A stretch of DNA of 62,338 nucleotides, filler included. It is 4 parts of 4 records of this genome, joined end to end, with 100 filler letters (N's around TTAATTAATTAA, not from the genome) between each part and the next. Parts side by side here need not be neighbours in the genome. Positions count along the whole stretch, not along the records: positions 32,009 to 37,711 come from SRR31156797_8108; 3 more parts are not named here. One strand, given 5' to 3'. Made by a program: the position numbers and the translations under genes. The stretch's first letter is position 1. Each line of letters opens with the position of its first letter. The notes below the pieces were generated by a model. That model saw only the letters and a program-made list of their open reading frames with translations. It was not told the origin of the DNA and made no database searches. Of the stretch, positions 28,218-52,654 are shown piece by piece.

Positions 28218-29465
28218 CTAATAAGATATTGTTTTAGCATCAAATAAGTGAATTTCTTTATTTGGGAATTTAGATTTAGCTGCTTCAAATACCTCATCCA
28301 TTTTTCCAAATGCAGAAATGTATATAGTCTCAATTGGAGAACTATTTATCTGCTCAAAAATGTGATCGTCATTATCTGCTAATGAACTTCCGATAATTAC
28401 CAAGTTACCAGAAAGGCTAGCTAATTTATCAAAACAATGTTTCAGATAATCATTATTATTTATAGCATCAGTTTTATTCGAACGCTGAAACACACAAACC
28501 ACTTCTTGTTCGTCGTTATTTAAGACATCTTCTAACTTTTCATATAATGCTTTATCTGATTGTTGGGTTATTTTCTTGAACACTTCACCATCTTTGTATA
28601 TATGAAACGCTCCATGCAAAAAAAATAAATTCTGTGTTTCACTGGTTACATCATAAACTAGTTCGGGAATATCAAATAAAGTTTGTTGCTTACTTCCATC
28701 ATCAACCTTACTCAGAAATTCATTGCTCTTTTCTTCTTGGAAAATCTGCTTTACAACTTTATCAATATCTTTTGCTTTCCATCCTTTTTTATATGTTTTT
28801 GAATAAGATTTAATTTCGGTAGTAAAATGTGCTTTAGTTAACATTCTACAATCTTTCTCTAGAGAATTCATAGCCTTACCAAGGGTTAACTTAATCTTAC
28901 CATTGACTCTAGCATTTTTAATTTCAGAAAATATATTATTTTGATTTGTATTAAAATCCTCTTCAATAAATTTTAGTGATGGCAAGAATGCAATAGCATT
29001 CTTATCTTTATCTTCAACTGGTTTATACTTTAATAAAAGGAGATATAAAAAGGAATCATAATTTAATGTAAAGTAGTTTGTAAATTCCTTAAGCAATACA
29101 AATATCCCATCATTTTTATTTGCATATATGTTTTTAATTTCATCTTTTACAATTTCATGTGTTGCCTGCATAAAATCGAGTTTAATTTTATTGGCTATAT
29201 ATTTCTGTAAGAAGATATTATCTTGATTAATATCATCCTCTAGTTTACCGATAAAATACTCTAAATCGAAATCACAATCCTTCACCATTTGCAATGCATC
29301 ATTGTAAATTTTCTTGTTATTATCAGCCATCTTTTCGAAGATAGCTCCATAGCCTGTATTTACTCCAAGTCCATAATTAAAACCATTTGCTATGAGTAAA
29401 TGATTTTCTTTAAGTTGAATCTCATTAAGAACTTCTTTGTAGGTAAGGAATTTATATTTTTCCAT
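28218..29465 (-). CDS. DUF4917 / SIR2-like domain protein, candidate defence NADase
   Basis: HLLIANGF, FTLNYD, FFLHGAFH and LVIIGSSLADNDDHI are SIR2-like fold motifs; AT-rich. Confidence 0.75.
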   Translation of the reverse strand: MEKYKFLTYKEVLNEIQLKENHLLIANGFNYGLGVNTGYGAIFEKMADNNKKIYNDALQMVKDCDFDLEYFIGKLEDDINQDNIFLQKYIANKIKLDFMQATHEIVKDEIKNIYANKNDGIFVLLKEFTNYFTLNYDSFLYLLLLKYKPVEDKDKNAIAFLPSLKFIEEDFNTNQNNIFSEIKNARVNGKIKLTLGKAMNSLEKDCRMLTKAHFTTEIKSYSKTYKKGWKAKDIDKVVKQIFQEEKSNEFLSKVDDGSKQQTLFDIPELVYDVTSETQNLFFLHGAFHIYKDGEVFKKITQQSDKALYEKLEDVLNNDEQEVVCVFQRSNKTDAINNNDYLKHCFDKLASLSGNLVIIGSSLADNDDHIFEQINSSPIETIYISAFGKMDEVFEAAKSKFPNKEIHLFDAKTISY

Positions 29466-30041: not shown

Positions 30042-31168
30042 GTTACCACACATTTTTCTTAAGGTCTTATATAAACTTCTACATTTAAGTCTTCAGTTGA
30101 TAATGTATTTAAATCGTTTTCTAATCCTCTTGGATTTTGAATTCTGTTTTCTGGGTCATAGACAAAACAAATTAATCGTTTACAATCAGGATGGACTTTG
30201 TAATGTTGAGAATCCAAAATTAATTGATCACCAACGTCTTTGTCCGCAAGCCCTTTCCTTGTTTTCTTTATTTCAATAACAATTTTTTCACTTTTTAGCA
30301 AAAAATCCACCCTGGTTGAACTACCAGCATAAGAAGGTGTATATTCTTCAGGTCTAACATCATCAAAGTCAATTCGCAATAGAGCATGAAACAAGTCTTG
30401 AACATCATATTCATCTTGAATCGTTATTGTATCTCTTTTATTATATCTATTTTGTAATTGACAAGCAATCTTATGAAATGAATCAATAATATTGATAATA
30501 AATTCAGATTTGTTTCCCGATGTTTCTTTGATTGAATATTTAATCTCCAGTTGTCGTAAAATACGATTTGCAATTTTCTCAAAATTTTGAATTGAAGCTA
30601 AGATTGAAAATGAGGACATTAATTCACCACCAATTTTTAAATGAGGTGGTGTATCCAATCCTTTATTTATAATGGAGGGGTCATCAGTTACAAAGGTCTT
30701 AGGTCTTCTCATTTTTACATAATCCCATGGAGTAATACCCCATTCATGTGATTCAATTTTACCTAAAAGTTCAACTTCGACATCTAATTTTTCATTTCCT
30801 TTTATGACTGACAATTCCGTCACAAGTTTATCTTGAAATTCTCTGTAGTTTTTAGAAATAGAGCTAACTTGTTTCCTAATTGATTCAATTTGTACATCTG
30901 CTTCACCTTCGATATACTTTTGAATGTTTTCTTCATCAATCCTAACAGCATCACCTTTTCTTGAAAAGTCACTGTAAACATCAAATTCTGTAGATGCCCA
31001 TTGTCCTATCCAGTTTTTATCAAACTTAGAAGATATCTCACTTAACTTTTGAAGTTGCTCCTGTAAAGCAGTAATTTCTTCTTTAGAATCTCTAATTAAA
31101 TTATTTAATTCCAATTTAATCGTTGCTATTATCTTTTCAATTTTCATTGCATTAAAATGTGTGGTAAC
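30042..31168 (-). mobile_element. Integron-like gene cassette bounded by complementary GTT.../...AAC core sites
   Basis: Perfect 15-bp inverted repeat GTTACCACACATTTT (30042-30056) / AAAATGTGTGGTAAC (31154-31168) tightly enclosing a single ORF. Confidence 0.65.
30059..31147 (-). CDS. PD-(D/E)XK nuclease with C-terminal DpnII/MboI-like REase domain and N-terminal coiled coil
   Basis: DEYDVQDLFHALL...DDVRPEEYTPSYAGSSTRVDFLLK...VIEIKK...DQLILD...Y...FVYDP. Confidence 0.8.
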   Translation of the reverse strand: MKIEKIIATIKLELNNLIRDSKEEITALQEQLQKLSEISSKFDKNWIGQWASTEFDVYSDFSRKGDAVRIDEENIQKYIEGEADVQIESIRKQVSSISKNYREFQDKLVTELSVIKGNEKLDVEVELLGKIESHEWGITPWDYVKMRRPKTFVTDDPSIINKGLDTPPHLKIGGELMSSFSILASIQNFEKIANRILRQLEIKYSIKETSGNKSEFIINIIDSFHKIACQLQNRYNKRDTITIQDEYDVQDLFHALLRIDFDDVRPEEYTPSYAGSSTRVDFLLKSEKIVIEIKKTRKGLADKDVGDQLILDSQHYKVHPDCKRLICFVYDPENRIQNPRGLENDLNTLSTEDLNVEVYIRP

Positions 31169-31908: not shown

Positions 31909-32008
31909 NNNNNNNNNNNNNNNNNNNNNNNNNNNNNNNNNNNNNNNNNNNNTTAATTAATTAANNNNNNNNNNNNNNNNNNNNNNNNNNNNNNNNNNNN
32001 NNNNNNNN
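31909..32008. other. Artificial contig-joining spacer
   Basis: N44-TTAATTAATTAA-N44, which gives stops in all six frames. Confidence 0.98.
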
Positions 32009-32042
32009 GGCGGCCTGGAATTCCAGGCCGCCATTTTTTTTT
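32009..32042. terminator. Strong intrinsic terminator at the operon end
   Basis: GGCGGCCTGG-AATT-CCAGGCCGCC perfect stem plus T9 on +; about 35 nt past the stop at 32067. Confidence 0.75.
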
Positions 32043-32066
32043 AATGGGCTACAGCGTAAGAGGTCA

Positions 32067-32903
32067 TTAATTTTTAAGGAGTTTTTTAGAAAATATTGTG
32101 TTTCCATCTTCATGAAAAAGTTGGATCATATAAACCCCCGGGGTGAGCCGATTTAAATTTATGTAAGCTAAATCCTGCACAGCAGCTTCATAGACCTGTT
32201 TCCCGGTATGGTCAAAAACCTTCAAAACGCTTTGTGATTGTAGGTTCCTCAGATGAACATAATCACTGAAAGGATTCGGGTAAACCAAAATATTTTGCGC
32301 CAGGCTTTCACCAATCAAACTGATGTCGGTACCTGCGATTATGATATCATCGATTTTTAATTTGCCACTCGATTCAACGGGTTCGCCAACACTCGACATA
32401 TTGCTTGTCATGATCCATCTCAGGAAAAGTAATGGTTGGTTGCTGCAATCTTCCGGGAGTGGAAGGTTTTCCAGAACACCTGTTTCCCAGTCGTTGGCTG
32501 TTGTGATTTCCGAATCAGCAACTTCAGTCCAGTCACCATCTACACCTACCTTGTAATCCACTCTGAAGTCACGTGGTCCCGGATCGTTGCCACCGGAACT
32601 CATTTTTGAACTCAGCATAAGTGATCCGTAATTTTCTGTATTCACCTCAACCACCCAGCATTTGGTTTCTGCACCATCTTCCCAGTGTGTTGCCTGAGCT
32701 GCTTTTGTAGTGGCGCCATTTTTATAATTCAGGTTGCTGATACCACCCATTGTGTAAATGGGCTTGTCGAGGTTTTGGGCAATTCCGCCATCCGCAATGG
32801 AATCCGTGCCTTCTTCAGGGAAGTTCCATTCAACGATCACTTCCTGTGCAAAAACTGTGATGCTAAAGATCATCATCGCAAAAAGTGTAAGTTGTTTTTT
32901 CAT
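32067..32903 (-). CDS. T9SS type-A sorting-domain protein with a single jelly-roll-like passenger domain
   Basis: Signal peptide MKKQLTLFAMMIFSITVFAQ (ATG 32903); GPRDFRVDY, LFLRW, KIDDI; C-terminal VYPNPFSD...GVYMIQL...KKLLKN. Confidence 0.85.
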   Translation of the reverse strand: MKKQLTLFAMMIFSITVFAQEVIVEWNFPEEGTDSIADGGIAQNLDKPIYTMGGISNLNYKNGATTKAAQATHWEDGAETKCWVVEVNTENYGSLMLSSKMSSGGNDPGPRDFRVDYKVGVDGDWTEVADSEITTANDWETGVLENLPLPEDCSNQPLLFLRWIMTSNMSSVGEPVESSGKLKIDDIIIAGTDISLIGESLAQNILVYPNPFSDYVHLRNLQSQSVLKVFDHTGKQVYEAAVQDLAYINLNRLTPGVYMIQLFHEDGNTIFSKKLLKN

Positions 32904-32965
32904 TGTGATAATTGTTTTGATCAATGATTATTGAAATTAAAATTTAAAAATAATTCGACTTTCAT

Positions 32966-33030
32966 GACACTCCACCATTCCATTACCCCATCATTCCAAC
33001 CTCCCAACTTTCCTTCACTCCATTTCTCCA
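32966..33030. repeat. Degenerate ~8-nt pyrimidine-rich tandem repeats (CATTCCAn-like) in the intergenic region
   Basis: CACTCCAC CATTCCAT TACCCCAT CATTCCAA CCTCCCAA CTTTCCTT CACTCCAT TTCTCCAC. Confidence 0.6.
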
Positions 33031-33033
33031 CTT

Positions 33034-35334
33034 TTACAAGCTATACTGTATTTTCCCCATGATGAATCTCCCTGGTGATAGCCTGAGCTTCTTGTCGATG
33101 GGCTGCCGGTCGAAAACATCCTGAACGATAAGCGATGCCCTCCAGTGTGAAGTAATTTGCTTCCACAGGTTAATGTCAAACATCCAGTATTCTTCGATCA
33201 GAATGGTATTGTATTCATCGCCCCACATCTCACCTATATAATTAATGGTGAGTGTTGTATTCAGGATTTTATTCTGCCATGTTGAACTCAGAAATGCGGT
33301 GTGTTCAGGAACTTCAGCAAGTTTTTTTCCTTTCAGCTCAATGGCCGGGTTTTCTTCATCCACATCAAATTTTTTAATAATGGAATGATTGTAAGCATAC
33401 CATGCATTAATACTGAGGTTTTTGAGGGGCGTCCATTTTGTGTTGAATTCAAAACCGGAGATTTCAACCTTGCTGATATTTTGCCTTTGAAGAACGGGTT
33501 TAAGGCTGTTTCCGCCGGTGTCAATGGAATCACCGTTAGGAACAAAATACTGGAAATCATTACCCAATGAATAGTAAATGCTGGGCTCGATGGTCAGGTT
33601 TGGAACCGGGTTCCAGTTGATCCCCCATTCCCAGGTTGTGATGGTTTCGGGGGTAAGCTCCGGGTTGGCCAGTTTAAAACCTTTGGTAATCTTTCCGGAT
33701 TTGCTCAGGTCGTCGAGCTTTGGCGGATTAAATCCTGTTGAGAAGGAAACATAACTGGAAAGTGATGGATTAAAAATATACATCCCCGAAAGTTTTGGAC
33801 TGAAAGATGTCCACGTATTCGACGTGAAATTTTCAGTGCTTTGCAGCGGGAAACCGGTTGTTGAAGTAGGGTCGTTAACTGTTAGGCTCCCGTCGCGATA
33901 GTTGGCCAGGTCGATGCGAGCCCCGGCAATAAGTTTTATTTTGCTCTGCAAAAGGTCAATCTCATCCTGGGTGAAAAATCCGGTATAACTAAGTTTGCCT
34001 TTGTATTGGATTTCATCCGTTGAGGTAAGGTAAATATCTTGGGAATCTACCAACCCATCCCGAACATCTATGCCAAAAGTTATGCGGTTATTTTTGATTA
34101 ATGTTTTTGAGGCGGTGAGCCAGATGCCACGGTCTTCTTTATACGAATCAGTGTAATAAAGCCGATACACACCTGTACTATTTACGGATTCATTTTGCCG
34201 ATCGTAGTTTTCGATTTGCATAAATGCATTGGCGTTAAGCTTCCATCCGCCGGCGAAACCTTCATATTTCATGCGGGCATAATGAATCTGGTATTCGTTG
34301 TAGCCGCCATCATCTTCAAAAACCTGTTTACCATCCCCCTTTTTCTCCCGGTGAAAATCATAGGCAACTTCAATTTTGTGGCTGGTGTTAAACTGATATC
34401 CCAACAGTCCACTGGCATTTTGCTCGTCCAGATAAGATTCAACATGAATGCTGTCGCGAGTTTCATCTGGCTCAATTACATATCCGTCTCCCTGGCGGTA
34501 AAACCCGTTGACGCCCCAATAAAAACCTTTGTTGCTTTTAAACTCATTCTTCCGGGCAGAAAAGTGGCCACCCCACGTATTCATCGATCCGATCTGAAAT
34601 TCAGCATTCAGCTGTAATTCGTTTTTGGGCTGACTGGTAATAACATTGATTACTCCTCCCATCGCATTCATCCCATATAGGGCTGATCCCGGACCTTTGA
34701 TCACCTCGATGCGTTGCACATCCTCTGGCCTGATGAGTGCCCATTGTATCTGGCCACCTGAAACTTTGTTGAGCGGCACACCATTCAGGAGCACCAAAGT
34801 TCTTTGGGTACCATCAAGTCCGCGCATGGTAACACTCGTATTTTTTGAAAAGATGCCCCAACTGCGGTTTACATAAACATTTGAAATACTTTGAAGCGCA
34901 TCATCCACATCGTTCACAGGAAGGCTGCTCACAACTTTGGAGTCAATTGTGGCCATCCTGACTGGGGTTTCTTTAATTTTTCTTTTGGTGCGTGTGGCCG
35001 TGATTACCACCGAAGATATTTCAATATGTGCAGGCTCCAGTCCGATTTTTATTGACCTGATTTCCTTTTCTCGCAGCTTAAATGCTATCGATTTATTTTT
35101 AAAACCAATAAATGAAGCTTCGAGGGTATAGTTTCCGGGGTCAAGATTTGTAATGGTGAAATTGCCCGAATCATCCGTGGTGGTGCCCGCGTTCAGTTTT
35201 TCAATCACCAGGTTGGCTCCGGGTAATGGCGATCCGGTTTCAGCATTTGTGATTAAGCCGGTAACTTTGGATTGCCCGTTTGCAAAACCAAAAAGTAAAA
35301 GGCTAAGTGCCAGGAATAAGATGTGGTTTTTCAT
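33034..35334 (-). CDS. TonB-dependent receptor (BtuB/CirA-like) with N-terminal carboxypeptidase-regulatory-like domain
   Basis: Signal peptide; VVITATRT; plug MRGLDGTQRTLVLLNGVP...RIEVIKGPGSALYG.NAMGGVINVIT; NPELTPE; C-terminal PGRFIMGKIQYSL. Confidence 0.92.
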   Translation of the reverse strand: MKNHILFLALSLLLFGFANGQSKVTGLITNAETGSPLPGANLVIEKLNAGTTTDDSGNFTITNLDPGNYTLEASFIGFKNKSIAFKLREKEIRSIKIGLEPAHIEISSVVITATRTKRKIKETPVRMATIDSKVVSSLPVNDVDDALQSISNVYVNRSWGIFSKNTSVTMRGLDGTQRTLVLLNGVPLNKVSGGQIQWALIRPEDVQRIEVIKGPGSALYGMNAMGGVINVITSQPKNELQLNAEFQIGSMNTWGGHFSARKNEFKSNKGFYWGVNGFYRQGDGYVIEPDETRDSIHVESYLDEQNASGLLGYQFNTSHKIEVAYDFHREKKGDGKQVFEDDGGYNEYQIHYARMKYEGFAGGWKLNANAFMQIENYDRQNESVNSTGVYRLYYTDSYKEDRGIWLTASKTLIKNNRITFGIDVRDGLVDSQDIYLTSTDEIQYKGKLSYTGFFTQDEIDLLQSKIKLIAGARIDLANYRDGSLTVNDPTSTTGFPLQSTENFTSNTWTSFSPKLSGMYIFNPSLSSYVSFSTGFNPPKLDDLSKSGKITKGFKLANPELTPETITTWEWGINWNPVPNLTIEPSIYYSLGNDFQYFVPNGDSIDTGGNSLKPVLQRQNISKVEISGFEFNTKWTPLKNLSINAWYAYNHSIIKKFDVDEENPAIELKGKKLAEVPEHTAFLSSTWQNKILNTTLTINYIGEMWGDEYNTILIEEYWMFDINLWKQITSHWRASLIVQDVFDRQPIDKKLRLSPGRFIMGKIQYSL

Positions 35335-35340
35335 CTGCAA

Positions 35341-36288
35341 TTATTTGTCCTGTACCTGAATATCAAATTTAATCGTGCCGGCATCCTGCCCAACAACCTC
35401 TGTTATCCTGAATATCCCGAATTTCGAATCCTGGGTTTTAAACGAAAAGGTCTTACCCGGCGCAAGGTTTTTTGCTTTTCGTTTTCCTTCTCCTTCCTGG
35501 TAGGAGGCTACCAGGATGCTATCGTTTTGGATGGCGTAAAACCCTTCCGGTTCAACATTAATTTCAATAAACCGGGTGGTGAGCCTGGTGGCCCAGTTTT
35601 GCAGATCTCCTTCAAATACGCCACTTTCAATATTGGCTCCCGGTGACGCTATCACGTTCTCGTCTTCTCCATAATAGTAGTAGAGCAGTTCAGTTTCATC
35701 CTGCAGTTGCAGTGCAGCGTTGAGGTCGTAAACTCCGGTTTCGAAGGAGAAAAAACTACCGGGGGTTCCCTGATTTTGAGCACTCATGATCACCGATTCG
35801 ATAAACCGTACAGGTCCGAAATCTGTAGTGGTATCCCGTGTAATTATTAGAGAAACGGAGTCTGCCAGCCTGTCTTTATCCCTGATTACAAATGTCCAGT
35901 ATTCCACATCCGCTGATGTTTTTGTGAACGATTTGCTGACCATAAAATCAGGGGTGTTCATGCTGGTATCAAGTACACGTTGTTGTATGAGCCCTGTGCC
36001 ATTTCTGAATGCAATCAGGTTGGTGAGATTATTACCCCCTTTATTGGCTTCTATCGTAAATTTCATCAGCTTGCCAAACCCTACTACAGTGTCATGGCTG
36101 ATGCTGCCTGGGGTGCTGATCAGGCTTATAGTTGGCTCTCCTGAAGATGTCTCATCTTTTTCGCATGCCAGGAATACAACTGTGGACATGATCATAACAA
36201 TAAACAGCGGAAAGGGGGCATGATTTTTTCGATATGCGCCATCAAACATATCGGTAATCCATTGATTTAATGTTTGCTTGATTCTCAT
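35341..36288 (-). CDS. Surface lipoprotein (Ig-like N-domain + HmuY/DUF4466-like C-domain)
   Basis: Lipobox FLAC followed by acidic EKDE (lipoprotein export signal-like); C-terminal SFFSF.TG, LLYYY, FSFKT.DSKFGIFRI pattern. The family assignment is tentative. Confidence 0.65.
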   Translation of the reverse strand: MRIKQTLNQWITDMFDGAYRKNHAPFPLFIVMIMSTVVFLACEKDETSSGEPTISLISTPGSISHDTVVGFGKLMKFTIEANKGGNNLTNLIAFRNGTGLIQQRVLDTSMNTPDFMVSKSFTKTSADVEYWTFVIRDKDRLADSVSLIITRDTTTDFGPVRFIESVIMSAQNQGTPGSFFSFETGVYDLNAALQLQDETELLYYYYGEDENVIASPGANIESGVFEGDLQNWATRLTTRFIEINVEPEGFYAIQNDSILVASYQEGEGKRKAKNLAPGKTFSFKTQDSKFGIFRITEVVGQDAGTIKFDIQVQDK

Positions 36289-36294
36289 TTTATT

Positions 36295-36882
36295 TTACCT
36301 GGAAAATTTAGAAAGGGTTTTTGTTATGATGTTCGAAATGCCGGTTCCAAGCAGGCCTCCTGCAAGTCCGAAACCAAACCATGTGAGGAATGGCAGGATG
36401 TAACCATGCTTGAGAAATGCACCATACTGATAGCCTGTTGAAACAGAAATCATCAACCTGCTGAATGGAATGGTGATATAAGCCATGCCTGCAATGCAAG
36501 CTAGGAATATTGCTTTTCTGCGGAGATTTCCGCCAAACTGATAAAGCACATCCAGCATGAGGCCGGGCAGCATATAATTAAATCCCATCATCGGATCTTT
36601 AAAACCAAAAACAGGGAATAGCATCAAAAAGCCAATGCCGAGTGAGGAAATTGTTGTGGCAAAACGCAGGTTTGAACTCATCCGGCCTATGAGCATCAGG
36701 CCCATAAACTCAAGGCCATGGTGTCCTGGAATATTTAGCGGGCTCCGAAACCTGGCATGCAACAGTATTGCGATGATGCCGATACCTGCCAGGAACAATA
36801 CTTCCAGTAATATTCCAAGATTCCGGCTATGAGTGAGATCGGATATACTCCTTACTTGCAACTTTCCAACTTGTTTTTCCAT
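36295..36882 (-). CDS. Small integral membrane protein, ECF S-component-like
   Basis: 195 aa with about 5-6 hydrophobic helices; PGHHG loop after TM1; PG...D in TM4; C-terminal FG..GG..G. Confidence 0.6.
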   Translation of the reverse strand: MEKQVGKLQVRSISDLTHSRNLGILLEVLFLAGIGIIAILLHARFRSPLNIPGHHGLEFMGLMLIGRMSSNLRFATTISSLGIGFLMLFPVFGFKDPMMGFNYMLPGLMLDVLYQFGGNLRRKAIFLACIAGMAYITIPFSRLMISVSTGYQYGAFLKHGYILPFLTWFGFGLAGGLLGTGISNIITKTLSKFSR

Positions 36883-37576
36883 CTTCGTTAAAAAATTTTT
36901 CTACAATCAGGGTTACTTTTTGATGTTTTAAAACAGGCCTGAACCATTCGTGGATATAAATTTTTCCGTTGCCCAGGAAATGTTTTTCCAGTCTGATTAA
37001 AATTTGCTCGATACCAAATTCTTCTCTCAGCTGGCTGGGTGTATAATACCCGGGTTTAAGGTCGCGCAATTCTTTTTTCTGTTTGAGCCAGATAAACCTG
37101 CCATCACTACCATACTTACGTAGCCCGACAGCAGCCAGTGCCCCAATGATCCCTGCATGATCCCCGGTTAATCCTTCCAGGTAAATGCTGTTGAATTTGC
37201 CTGCAATTTCCAGTGCTTCCTCTTGGGTCAGTAATTCATATTTGGCCCTGTTTCCCCATCTGGTAACCAGTTTGGGGATGTCATCGTTATTTGCGATACA
37301 AAGCCCCACATCCGAACCTTCAGGTGCAATTTCCAAGAGAAAATTCCTGCAAAACCTATTTAGGTTTTCAAGATTATCTGTTTCGATTAGCAGGCATGCC
37401 GAACTGTTTTGTGAGGTGTAACGAATGGCGGGGTGCACATAATTCTGGTGGCGCGTGATACCATGCACCGTTCCGATGCTGGCATCTTCCAGCTTCAGCG
37501 CCAGCTGCCGCGCATGGAAGCCTGTTCCGCGTGATTCGGTGGTATCGGTATCGTCTATGCCTACCAGGTATTTCAT
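36827..37576 (-). CDS. Stand-alone TiaS (tRNA-Ile2 agmatinylcytidine synthetase) N-terminal-domain-like protein
   Basis: VGIDDTD, HPAIRYTSQNSSAC (cf. NP.IP.KTRGN), SDVGL, G..AK...T.EEA and GIIGALAAVG match the TiaS/Mmp11 catalytic core. It is only 249 aa and has no CxxC Zn-ribbon. Confidence 0.7.
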   Translation of the reverse strand: MKYLVGIDDTDTTESRGTGFHARQLALKLEDASIGTVHGITRHQNYVHPAIRYTSQNSSACLLIETDNLENLNRFCRNFLLEIAPEGSDVGLCIANNDDIPKLVTRWGNRAKYELLTQEEALEIAGKFNSIYLEGLTGDHAGIIGALAAVGLRKYGSDGRFIWLKQKKELRDLKPGYYTPSQLREEFGIEQILIRLEKHFLGNGKIYIHEWFRPVLKHQKVTLIVEKFFNEDGKTSWKVASKEYIRSHS

Positions 37577-37594
37577 TCAAAATTTTTGAGTGGG

Positions 37595-37602
37595 CAAAGC
37601 TA
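37595..37602 (-). promoter_or_regulatory. Bacteroidota -7 promoter element of the 5-gene operon
   Basis: The minus strand reads TAGCTTTG (TAnnTTTG) 18 nt upstream of ATG 37576. Confidence 0.65.
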
Positions 37603-37711
37603 AATCATTTTTTTATGAAAGCAGAAAGGGAGTGAGATTTTGTGAAAGAAGTGAGCAATGCAATAAGTTACATCTGTATTTTAACCCGCCAGCCCTTCAA
37701 CCCGCTTTTTA

Positions 37712-37811
37712 NNNNNNNNNNNNNNNNNNNNNNNNNNNNNNNNNNNNNNNNNNNNTTAATTAATTAANNNNNNNNNNNNNNNNNNNNNNNNNNNNNNNNN
37801 NNNNNNNNNNN
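37712..37811. other. Artificial contig-joining spacer
   Basis: N44-TTAATTAATTAA-N44. Confidence 0.98.
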
Positions 37812-37978: not shown

Positions 37979-39172
37979 GTGAAGGATATTTTAGATCAAA
38001 AAAGAGATGCAGAAACCACAGTATTAGTAGGTATAGTATCACAGCATCAAACAGAAGAACAAACCAAAGAGTATTTGGATGAACTGGCATTTTTGGCAGA
38101 AACAGCAGGTGTGGAAGTAAAAAAAACATTCACTCAAAAGCTTGACACACCTAATCCAAAAACATTCATTGGTACAGGAAAACTCAACGAAATCCAAGAA
38201 TACATGGAAGAGCATGAGATCGAAATGATTATTTTTGACGACGAACTCTCTCCTTCCCAAATAAGAAATATTGAAAAAGTAATAAAAGGCAGGGCTATTG
38301 ATCGTACAAATCTCATTCTAGATATTTTTGCCCAGCGAGCCCAAACAGCACATGCGAAAGTTCAAGTTGAACTTGCTCAATATCAGTATTTATTACCACG
38401 ACTGGCTGGACTATGGACTCACCTTGAGCGTCAAAAAGGAGGTATTGGATTGAGAGGACCCGGTGAAACAGAAATTGAAACTGACCGTCGTATAATTCGG
38501 GATAAAATAGCAAGACTAAAAGGTCAATTATCTAAAATTGACCAACAAATGGCTACTCAAAGAAAAAACAGAGGAAAAATGGTGCGTGTAGCGCTTGTCG
38601 GATATACAAACGTAGGCAAATCTACCTTAATGAACCTATTAAGTAAATCAGAAGTATTTGCAGAGAATAAGCTATTCGCGACACTAGACACTACAGTTAG
38701 AAAAGTTGTTATAGAAAACCTTCCATTTTTAATGTCAGATACTGTTGGATTTATTCGTAAACTTCCTACAACCCTTGTTGAAGCATTTAAATCAACATTG
38801 GACGAAGTACGTGAAGCAGATATTTTATTGCACGTTGTAGATATCTCCCATCCAAACCACGAAGAACAACTTGATGTTGTCGAAACGACATTAAATGAAA
38901 TTGGATGCACGAACACGCCTAAATATCTTGTATTTAATAAAATAGACCAATACACATACATAGAAAAAGAGGAAGATGACCTTACGGAAAAAACAAAAGA
39001 AAACTGGTCTTTAGAAGACCTAAAAAAGAGCCATATGGCTAAAAGCAATGACTCATGCATATTCATCTCGGCCAAGAAAAAACAAAACATTGAAAACTTA
39101 AAGTCAATGCTTTATAAAAAAGTAAAAGATATTCATCAGAAAAGATATCCTTATAACGACTTCTTATATTAA
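37979..39172 (+). CDS. hflX: Ribosome-splitting GTPase HflX
   Basis: LILDIFAQRA, GLRGPGETEIETDRR, G1 GYTNVGKS, LFATLD, G3 DTVG, G4 NKID. Confidence 0.97.
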   Translation: MKDILDQKRDAETTVLVGIVSQHQTEEQTKEYLDELAFLAETAGVEVKKTFTQKLDTPNPKTFIGTGKLNEIQEYMEEHEIEMIIFDDELSPSQIRNIEKVIKGRAIDRTNLILDIFAQRAQTAHAKVQVELAQYQYLLPRLAGLWTHLERQKGGIGLRGPGETEIETDRRIIRDKIARLKGQLSKIDQQMATQRKNRGKMVRVALVGYTNVGKSTLMNLLSKSEVFAENKLFATLDTTVRKVVIENLPFLMSDTVGFIRKLPTTLVEAFKSTLDEVREADILLHVVDISHPNHEEQLDVVETTLNEIGCTNTPKYLVFNKIDQYTYIEKEEDDLTEKTKENWSLEDLKKSHMAKSNDSCIFISAKKKQNIENLKSMLYKKVKDIHQKRYPYNDFLY

Positions 39173-39595: not shown

Positions 39596-39976
39596 TTATT
39601 TATAATCAGTTGTCAATACTTTTCTATAATGCTGTGGTTCATGCCCAAAATTAAGCAACAAACCAACTTCAATTCCAGTAGCTTTAAGATAGTTAACTAA
39701 TTGAACCTCATGTATCATAAGTACTTCGGAAACTGCTTTAAGCTCAACAATCACTTTGTTTTCAATTACTATATCTGCATAATAATCTCCAATTATTTTG
39801 TCTCTATAAGTGACCTTTATAGGCATTTGCTGATTGCAACTTAAACCAAATTCCTTTAGTTCAATCATCATTGCATTTTCGTAGACTTTTTCCATAAAGC
39901 CATAGCCTAACTTATTATAAACATTGTAATATGCTTTAATTATTTGATGTGTTAAATTACTGTGCTTGTATTTCAT
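39596..39976 (-). CDS. GxxExxY protein (PD-(D/E)XK nuclease superfamily)
   Basis: LGYGFMEKVYEN, ADIVIENKVIVELK, HEVQLVNYLKATG...GLLLNFG. Confidence 0.93.
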   Translation of the reverse strand: MKYKHSNLTHQIIKAYYNVYNKLGYGFMEKVYENAMMIELKEFGLSCNQQMPIKVTYRDKIIGDYYADIVIENKVIVELKAVSEVLMIHEVQLVNYLKATGIEVGLLLNFGHEPQHYRKVLTTDYK

Positions 39977-52554: not shown

Positions 52555-52654
52555 NNNNNNNNNNNNNNNNNNNNNNNNNNNNNNNNNNNNNNNNNNNNTT
52601 AATTAATTAANNNNNNNNNNNNNNNNNNNNNNNNNNNNNNNNNNNNNNNNNNNN
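52555..52654. other. Artificial contig-joining spacer
   Basis: N44-TTAATTAATTAA-N44. Confidence 0.98.

Follow-up and report, generated by a model that had tools for sequence, protein, structure and literature searches.

A five-gene module of a TiaS-like kinase-domain protein, an S-component-fold protein and a TonB-dependent receptor, with a predicted role in tungstate or molybdate import

The stretch of DNA analyzed here (the window, 62,338 nucleotides (nt)) is made of four joined contigs, one of which carries five consecutive genes on the minus strand that we call g1 to g5 and examine as a candidate import module. The first, g1 (37576-36827, 249 amino acids (aa)), encodes a cytoplasmic TCKD-like protein that resembles the archaeal enzyme TiaS, followed by g2 (36882-36295, 195 aa), a membrane protein with the fold of the S-components of energy-coupling factor (ECF) transporters, g3 (36288-35341, 315 aa), a lipoprotein, g4 (35340-33034, 768 aa), a TonB-dependent receptor, and g5 (32924-32067, 285 aa, with the probable true start at a conserved MKK at 32903), a cargo protein of the type IX secretion system (T9SS). 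Five co-directional genes had been claimed in a first-pass annotation made from the letters alone, and five minus-strand open reading frames (ORFs) are indeed found, the plus-strand ORFs in 32067-37602 being short shadows of these longer frames. The same annotation described the genes as near-abutting, which is correct for g1/g2, which overlap by 56 nt, for g2/g3, separated by 6 nt, and for g3/g4, which abut directly or, with the ATG of g4 taken as its start, are 6 nt apart, but not for g4/g5, where the gap is 109-130 nt.

A promoter had been proposed upstream of g1, and the relatives of the locus argue for it. The element TAGCTTTG (37595-37602, minus strand) is located 19 nt ahead of the ATG of g1 and matches TAnnTTTG, the consensus of the Bacteroidota -7 promoter element. 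Of 74 related loci, 18 have this motif in the 70 nt preceding g1, compared with 585 of 13,899 background 70-nt windows (4.2%). The further claim that this promoter and a strong terminator delimit the unit is not upheld. The limits are those of the contig, which is complete at 5,703 bp (32009-37711) and has 135 nt ahead of g1 and 58 nt beyond the end of g5. The final sequence of the contig is a palindromic G+C-rich hairpin (32009-32032, 10 pairs, 9 of them G-C); its T-run is on the plus-strand side, and on the operon strand an A-run precedes the hairpin and the following sequence is beyond the contig end. The hairpin may be a bidirectional terminator. Since further co-directional genes are present both up- and downstream in relatives, five genes are a minimum for the operon. 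The four contigs, of 31,908, 5,703, 14,743, and 9,684 bp with GC contents of 0.353, 0.436, 0.354, and 0.386, are joined by artificial N44-TTAATTAATTAA-N44 linkers at 31909-32008, 37712-37811, and 52555-52654, so that the neighbors of the locus in the window are not its true neighbors and synteny across the joins is artificial. The locus contig (GC 0.436) thus stands between contigs of 0.353 and 0.354; among eight related loci checked, the unit is richer in G+C than its left flank in two (L002 and L004) and equal to it in six.

The likeness of g1 to TiaS is seen in both fold and sequence comparisons. Its AlphaFold2 (AF2) model (predicted local distance difference test (pLDDT) 90.4) matches TiaS in Foldseek (4rvz, E 1.2e-9) and in VIA (3amt, Z 21.7, root-mean-square deviation 1.8 Å over 154 residues with 26% identity), and a phmmer search of Protein Data Bank (PDB) sequences aligns residues 1-152 with TiaS (E 6e-8), including GIDDTD, Thr18, which aligns with Thr18 of TiaS, and GALAAVG. 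The TiaS-like core announced by the motif string GIDDTD...GIIGALAAVG is therefore confirmed at the level of the fold, and all 24 aligned members of the g1 family share D8, D9, T10, D11, T18, and the glycine-rich motif unchanged. The match is confined to the TCKD kinase domain. Within the 420-residue TiaS chain it covers residues 1-151, the NCBIfam model of TiaS is matched at positions 1-152 of 422 only (E 8e-8; 31.3 bits against a cut-off of 600), and sequence and structure comparison find no TiaS counterpart of g1 beyond residue 152. This remainder is a β-rich C-terminal domain of ∼95 aa, and matches to the N-terminal domain, rather than to residues ∼160-249, occupy the structural match list. 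The tRNA-binding OB and Zn-ribbon domains of TiaS lie beyond its kinase domain, and g1, at 249 aa and with a TiaS match that ends at residue 152, is too short to carry them, as the first-pass annotation had noted. The best sequence-family match of g1 is in fact to methan_mark_11 (TIGR03280, Mmp11; E 3e-12), with g1 residues 2-153 corresponding to model positions 134-283 of 292, and this score too (46.3 bits against 255.8) is far under its cut-off. Mmp11 is likewise a TCKD protein not concerned with tRNA, but it is archaeal, has an extra N-terminal domain of ∼130 residues, and lacks the C-terminal domain of g1. A literature search with the phrase "methanogenesis marker protein 11" found no paper that contains it.

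The fold and motifs that g1 has in common with TiaS (3amt, 4rvz, 5xob, 3u02) could be taken to mean that g1 is itself an RNA or tRNA cytidine-modifying enzyme and that its place beside transporter genes has no functional meaning. We consider this highly improbable. TiaS is an archaeal tRNA(Ile2) 2-agmatinylcytidine synthetase of ∼420 aa, whereas g1 is bacterial, lacks the domains that hold the tRNA, and is always encoded with import genes, a linkage that extends across phyla. Five diderm genomes that carry g1, three of them complete chromosomes, were examined for TilS, EcfT, permeases, and aldehyde:ferredoxin oxidoreductases, and TilS (N-domain family TIGR02432) is above cut-off in all five, which makes a tRNA job for g1 unnecessary. 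The family is large: a word-index search collects 2,207 proteins at E ≤1e-3, and clusters at 50% identity number 1,079 at E 1e-3, 715 at E 1e-10, and 300 at E 1e-30. We note one 826-aa member, P0243, present as a single representative, in which a full g1 domain (1-251) is joined to an FAD-dependent oxidoreductase (DAO) domain and a BFD-like [2Fe-2S] domain; it may be a true fusion or a gene-calling artifact. A search for longer proteins returned only P0121 (452 aa), which we rejected as a g1-g2 fusion because its middle is rich in Arg, Ser, and Ala and looks like a frameshifted gene call.

For g2, no Pfam or NCBIfam family is matched at E ≤0.1, and no named S-component family is reached. With the AF2 model (pLDDT 91) as query, the 15 best of 48,161 chains in VIA are all ECF S-components (Z 14.8-7.8 over 149-171 residues), and the next unrelated row is at Z 6.9. 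The leading match is 5edl (Z 14.8), which we take to be YkoE, an S-component for a thiamine precursor; it is followed by RibU (11.4) and then by ThiT, PanT, BioY, NikM, FolT, BtuM (8.5), and CbiM (7.8). The structure search therefore agrees with the description of g2 as S-component-like that had been offered from the letters, and both the six-helix fold and the length of g2 (S-components have ∼160-210 residues) conform to that superfamily. A PGHHG motif in the first loop, D111, and R142 are conserved in the family alignment. The motor subunit EcfT (PF02361) is found in none of the five diderm carrier genomes at E ≤1e-3, although the same control detects it in 11 of 14 reference genomes, which indicates that g2 of the type in the window probably works as a solitary S-component without an ECF motor, like BtuM. 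In passages of PMC6072759, BtuM is described as a solitary S-component that is co-localized with btuB in a genome without EcfT, and a passage of PMC11109136 states that the transport mode of solitary S-components is unclear.

The remaining three genes would act at the outer membrane and cell surface. The g3 protein begins with a lipoprotein signal peptide (...VVFLAC(42)EKDE), and all 29 aligned homologues have Cys42, in the consensus SCxKE; a Cys followed by acidic residues is a surface-export motif in Bacteroidota, and we predict that g3 is exposed at the surface. The receptor g4 contains PF13715 (a CarboxypepD_reg-like N-terminal domain), the plug PF07715 (89 bits against 23.9), and the 22-strand-barrel domain PF00593 (133.7 bits against 27), all above cut-off, and g5 carries the T9SS type A sorting domain at residues 214-285 (TIGR04183, 42.3 bits against 23; PF18962, 43 bits against 27) behind a conserved N-terminal domain of ∼180 aa that is of no known family. 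The lipoprotein, the TonB receptor, and the T9SS cargo protein are thus what the first-pass annotation took them to be. g3 has no Pfam, NCBIfam, or PDB-sequence relative, its Atlas neighbors being unnamed Bacteroidota clusters throughout, and g5 matches PDB sequences in its sorting domain only, with Atlas scores of ≤0.83 to unnamed clusters. An hhalign comparison shows no relationship between the two (probability 1.5%). None of g2, g3, and the N-terminal domain of g5 falls in a named family, as judged by these sequence searches.

Species genomes were scanned for relatives of the locus; of 600 candidate stretches, 553 were confirmed, and the best 80 loci were kept for counts of neighboring genes. 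They are mostly from Bacteroidota, with, by record title, seven from Gammaproteobacteria or Steroidobacteraceae, two of Acidobacteria type, and one each from Alcaligenaceae, Chlorobiota, and Anaerolineales. Of the loci with enough downstream DNA for presence to be scored, 75 of 78 have g2 immediately after g1, 58 of 71 have g3, 58 of 63 have a TonB receptor (52 of them on the same strand), and 27 of 57 have g5. The pair g1-g2 is the core, and the outer-membrane trio is the usual Bacteroidota complement. Co-occurrence with the transporter genes had been named beforehand as the observation on which the proposed system would stand or fall, and the pairing of g1 with g2 and the receptor speaks in its favor. 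In a sample of 401 Bacteroidota genomes, g1 is found in the centre genome only, which left no basis for a phyletic correlation. The three closest relatives (L001, L002, and L004) have unrelated flanks, which shows the five genes to be a self-contained module. Its outer-membrane parts occur in additional copies in several loci. A second set of lipoprotein, T9SS protein, and receptor lies near the core in L038, L042, L053, and L074; additional lipoprotein copies, alone or accompanied by a T9SS protein or receptor, are present in L002, L029, L060, and L063; and an unnamed family of 351 aa (cluster 26) adjoins an extra receptor copy in L034, L038, and L042. Five loci encode an HD-domain protein instead of g5 in the interval from the receptor to MoeA (e.g., L039:12575-13372).

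What the module might carry is suggested by its neighbors. All ORFs of the 80 loci were clustered and the clusters named by Pfam and NCBIfam, and at least one cluster linked to tungsten or molybdenum (W/Mo) lies within 8 kb of the core in 50 of the 80. The most frequent is a regulator like ModE that has only the helix-turn-helix (HTH) part (38 loci; ModE_repress, TIGR00637, E 7e-20); in 33 of 73 loci it is the first ORF upstream. The aldehyde:ferredoxin oxidoreductase family (Pfam AFOR_N and AFOR_C) is present in 20 loci, MoeA and MoaA in 15 each (Pfam), MoaC in 12 (Pfam), and MOSC+MoaB in five (Pfam and NCBIfam); the tungstate-binding protein WtpA is found in seven (291.9 bits against a cut-off of 242.75), and it is above cut-off in three contexts. 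Among the five diderm carrier genomes, four have aldehyde:ferredoxin oxidoreductase genes. Near the module, the oxidoreductase has a long form of ∼720 aa (L017:5137-7296 and 19 other loci), and it is accompanied in 18 loci by a ThiF-family adenylyltransferase gene (NCBIfam ThiF), usually divergent and just upstream, which could be a dedicated cofactor-maturation factor. A gene like PpnP, a pyrimidine/purine nucleoside phosphorylase (PF06865, above cut-off with E 1.2e-32; NF007875, 104.9 bits, under the cut-off of 143), lies just upstream of the ModE-like regulator and g1 in 20 of the 80 loci (e.g., L007:3211-3492).

The W/Mo context recurs outside Bacteroidota. In the gammaproteobacterial locus L040, g1-g2 directly follow an operon like that of a formate dehydrogenase (a twin-arginine translocation (TAT) target protein, an oxidoreductase, an iron-sulfur subunit, and a cytochrome b), in which the oxidoreductase frame has the Molybdopterin oxidoreductase, Fe4S4, and Molydop_binding domains, and a TonB receptor converges on g1-g2 from downstream. 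All seven loci from Gammaproteobacteria or Steroidobacteraceae hold at least one cluster of this stretch (22, 23, or 24). A selenocysteine read-through in L040 was considered and rejected, because the frame continuing after the TAT-target ORF is nonsense and the oxidoreductase is in another frame. In Chloroflexota, where g1 is found in 8 of 401 sampled genomes, L089 has the order regulator (HTH plus a part like a periplasmic binding protein), g1, WtpA (273.3 bits against 242.75), and an ATPase like WtpC (332.9 bits, under the cut-off of 440). In L071, WtpA and a WtpB-like permease are divergent from a gene string that ends in g1, a fused EcfAA′, EcfT, and an S-component; the same g1-EcfAA′-EcfT-S layout is found in L091 and L095, with the S-component ∼3 kb downstream of g1 on the same strand. 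L094 also has a g2-like S-component ∼3 kb downstream of g1 on the same strand, recognized by the g2 profile only, and the ORFs in between have no Pfam match. In L090, nothing obvious lies beside g1. Four of the eight Chloroflexota g1 loci thus have a g2 homologue, and three of these have it with EcfAA′ and EcfT.

These Chloroflexota proteins match the g2 profile at E 3e-17 (L071) to 1.6e-19, and those of L071, L091, and L095 exceed the PF09819 cut-off of 25.2 (27.4, 29.0, and 32.7 bits), the one in L094 being without a Pfam match; through them, g2 is linked by sequence to true ECF S-components. An unnamed ORF of ∼185 aa stands between EcfT and the g2-like S-component (L091:3319-3876 and L095:5168-5722). 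It has no Pfam match in either locus, and the L091 copy has no NCBIfam match; it may be an extra transporter subunit. The arrangement recalls the group I ECF transporters of the YkoE/PF09819 type, which share with it PF09819, a fused EcfAA′, CbiQ/EcfT, and a soluble protein encoded first, as ykoF is in its operon. Unlike these, g2 of the window has no Pfam match, the diderm carriers have no ECF motor, and the context is that of W/Mo rather than thiamine, with no THI riboswitch. The first-pass annotation had listed upstream riboswitches among its checks, and this one gave nothing: no Rfam family reaches its gathering score in nine loci (125,240 bases) and nothing relevant is seen in the contig at E ≤1, so that no cobalamin, thiamine, molybdenum cofactor (Moco), or other riboswitch was found in either.

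Across these loci, g1 is the constant part, found with four kinds of importer: the solitary S-component, the full ECF transporter, an ATP-binding cassette (ABC) importer of the WtpA/WtpC type, and a type II ABC importer. A role in processing the imported cargo is therefore likelier than one in powering a transporter. The alternative is that g1 is a sensor or regulatory partner, either the ligand-sensing half of the ModE-like regulator or a gate or energizer docked on g2. ModE is described with molybdate-binding Mop domains (PMC11672702), and the 125-aa neighbor of g1, which covers positions 3-91 of the 100-position repressor-domain model, has the DNA-binding domain only; the 56-nt overlap of g1 and g2 and their pairing in 75 of 78 loci also speak for such a partnership. 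We nevertheless give this a slim chance. The regulator is absent beside g1 in more than half of the loci, GIDDTD and the invariant Thr18 look catalytic, and the presence of g1 with complete ATP-driven transporters argues that it is not a dedicated motor. A predicted complex of g1 and g2 scores 0.00, which weighs neither way.

Taken together, these observations suggested to us that the module is a self-contained micronutrient-import unit for tungstate and/or molybdate, free or carrier-bound, a reading to which we give somewhat better than an even chance. The cargo would be captured at the cell surface by g5, exported by the T9SS, together with the surface lipoprotein g3, and would be moved across the outer membrane into the periplasm by g4, whose family is established and whose cargo is predicted. 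At the inner membrane, g2, which has the S-component fold in genomes without EcfT, would carry it across without an ECF motor, much as BtuM may do. In the cytoplasm, g1 is predicted to activate or remodel the imported species: it would spend ATP to trap it, activate it, or hand it on for assembly of the W/Mo cofactor. TiaS converts ATP to AMP and PPi and phosphorylates the C2 carbonyl oxygen of cytidine, chemistry that suggests activation or trapping of a metalate, and the storage protein MoSto is a precedent for ATP-dependent handling of molybdate. The import chain with its TiaS-like enzyme, as first proposed, is therefore retained in its folds and families; the vitamin, cofactor, or nucleoside-like cargo proposed with it is not, given the lack of a riboswitch and the recurrence of W/Mo neighbors.

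Several observations weigh against this assignment of the cargo. We know of no S-component that carries an oxyanion and of no TonB receptor shown to take free tungstate or molybdate. The Foldseek matches of g2, of which the top five are all S-components, have weak E-values (0.07-0.43). The counts exceed the number of independent events, since many of the 38 loci with the ModE-like regulator come from Bacteroidales that are related to one another. The window contig, which is short, and L001, L002, and L004 have no W/Mo gene within reach, and the link of the window module to W/Mo thus comes from its homology to more distant loci. Permeases like ModB or WtpB are present in four of the five carrier genomes, so that the module is not the only route and would supplement the classical pumps rather than replace them. 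Finally, the fold of g1 has a weak likeness to the pterin pyrophosphokinase HPPK (VIA Z 6.4-7.6, Foldseek E ∼0.02), which would suit an organic cargo.

This last point leads to the idea that the module scavenges from the environment an organic molecule from the pathway of Moco or the tungsten cofactor, for example a pterin, cyclic pyranopterin monophosphate, molybdopterin, or a dephosphorylated product of its breakdown, with g1 as a salvage kinase that re-phosphorylates or activates it. The W/Mo cofactor context fits such a cargo equally well, vitamins and vitamin precursors are the characteristic cargo of S-components (including 5edl, the best fold match of g2), bulky organic micronutrients are what TonB receptors paired with surface lipoproteins typically import, and many vitamin salvage kinases act as the kinase-like g1 would. 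What tells against it is the company of g1, which sits inside the WtpA-WtpC-like operon of L089 and beside WtpA or WtpA/WtpB-like genes in L012, L062, and L071. These proteins bind only oxyanions, and for this reason we favor tungstate or molybdate over a pterin. Moreover, up to 15 of the 80 loci have MoaA and MoaC for de novo synthesis within the same string of genes, so that salvage of a precursor is not obviously needed, no Moco riboswitch was found in the nine loci or the contig, and the HPPK scores are within the range of generic ferredoxin-like matches. We therefore regard a cofactor precursor as an unlikely cargo.

A corrinoid, haem, or another metal chelate, taken up by a system like BtuB/BtuG/BtuM or HmuR/HmuY with W/Mo neighbors by coincidence, seems to us quite improbable. 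The architecture does invite the comparison: a receptor, a surface lipoprotein, and a solitary S-component mirror vitamin B12 uptake as passages of PMC6072759 present it, and BtuM is among the fold matches of g2. The best matches of g4 to substrate subfamilies are TonB-hemin (185 against 316.85), TonB-siderophore (147.8 against 223.5), and TonB-B12 (105 against 599.7), but all are well under their cut-offs. Similarly, g1 adjoins a BtuC-like or FecCD/Peripla_BP_2 importer in the Chloroflexota loci L092 and L093, for which the best names are B12 or siderophore, an observation that also counts against an oxyanion cargo; type II ABC importers, however, include the molybdate/tungstate system MolBCA. 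No cob, hem, or siderophore genes are among the recurrent neighbor clusters of the 80 loci, no cobalamin riboswitch was found, and W/Mo genes recur in three phyla.

Tungstate or molybdate import by this module would differ from the systems to which it is closest. In passages of PMC6072759, TonB receptors are co-encoded with S-component-fold proteins in diderms without EcfT, as here, but the module has no cobalamin riboswitch or cob context, its g2 is nearer to 5edl than to BtuM, and it adds a kinase-like partner, a lipoprotein, and a T9SS protein, with W/Mo as the predicted cargo. ModABC, WtpABC, TupABC, and MolBCA share that predicted cargo, and WtpA, WtpB-like, and WtpC-like genes stand beside g1 in several loci, but these families include none of the g1 to g5 proteins, and in place of a binding-protein-dependent ABC pump the module has a kinase-like enzyme with a TonB receptor and an S-component. 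A precedent for a route by way of a secreted binder and an outer-membrane protein is ModA-IcmP of Pseudomonas aeruginosa, in which, as cited in a passage of PMC11734730, a secreted binder brings molybdate to an outer-membrane protein. We found no description of the present system in the literature, in searches that covered TonB with tungstate or molybdate, TiaS with molybdenum, S-components with tungsten, and Mmp11, although subscription journals and supplementary files were outside the search and one may exist. The available text of the survey of the S-component fold (PMC11109136) does not mention TonB, molybd, tungst, TiaS, or Bacteroid, and PMC13119186 concerns a cobalt ECF transporter. Compared with uptake by a TonB receptor and a solitary S-component, what is new here is the predicted cargo class, the enzyme partner, and three unnamed protein families.

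The other contigs of the window hold a few features apart from the module. The left contig has a tail of 30% GC that encodes a DUF4917 protein (28218-29465, minus strand, E 4e-17) and a protein with a C-terminal restriction endonuclease domain of the DpnII/MboI type (30059-31147, minus strand, E 4e-56); the pair may be a small defense or restriction island. On the right-hand contig, a 126-aa protein of the PD-(D/E)XK nuclease superfamily (PDDEXK_3, 39596-39976, minus strand, E 4e-41) adjoins HflX (37979-39172).

Enzymes of W and Mo drive much of anaerobic carbon, nitrogen, and sulfur metabolism, and their established uptake is by binding-protein ABC pumps; how cells capture these metals at trace level, discriminate between them, and deliver them to cofactors is understood in part. 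If our reading is correct, the module would provide an outer-membrane, energy-dependent capture step for W/Mo, S-component transporters would gain a new class of cargo, and the TiaS kinase fold would have a job that does not involve RNA. A broader proposal, which we put forward tentatively and consider doubtful as a whole, is that g1 is the first of a class of enzymes with the TiaS kinase fold that are coupled to transporters and use ATP to activate the cargo, here imported tungstate or molybdate, and that together with g2 to g5 it makes up the first TonB-dependent, S-component-based (ECF-type) metal-oxyanion pathway; by extension, the archaeal paralogue Mmp11 would handle W/Mo for the formylmethanofuran dehydrogenases of methanogens. 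The module would thereby supply a testable hypothesis for Mmp11, a conserved protein of methanogens.

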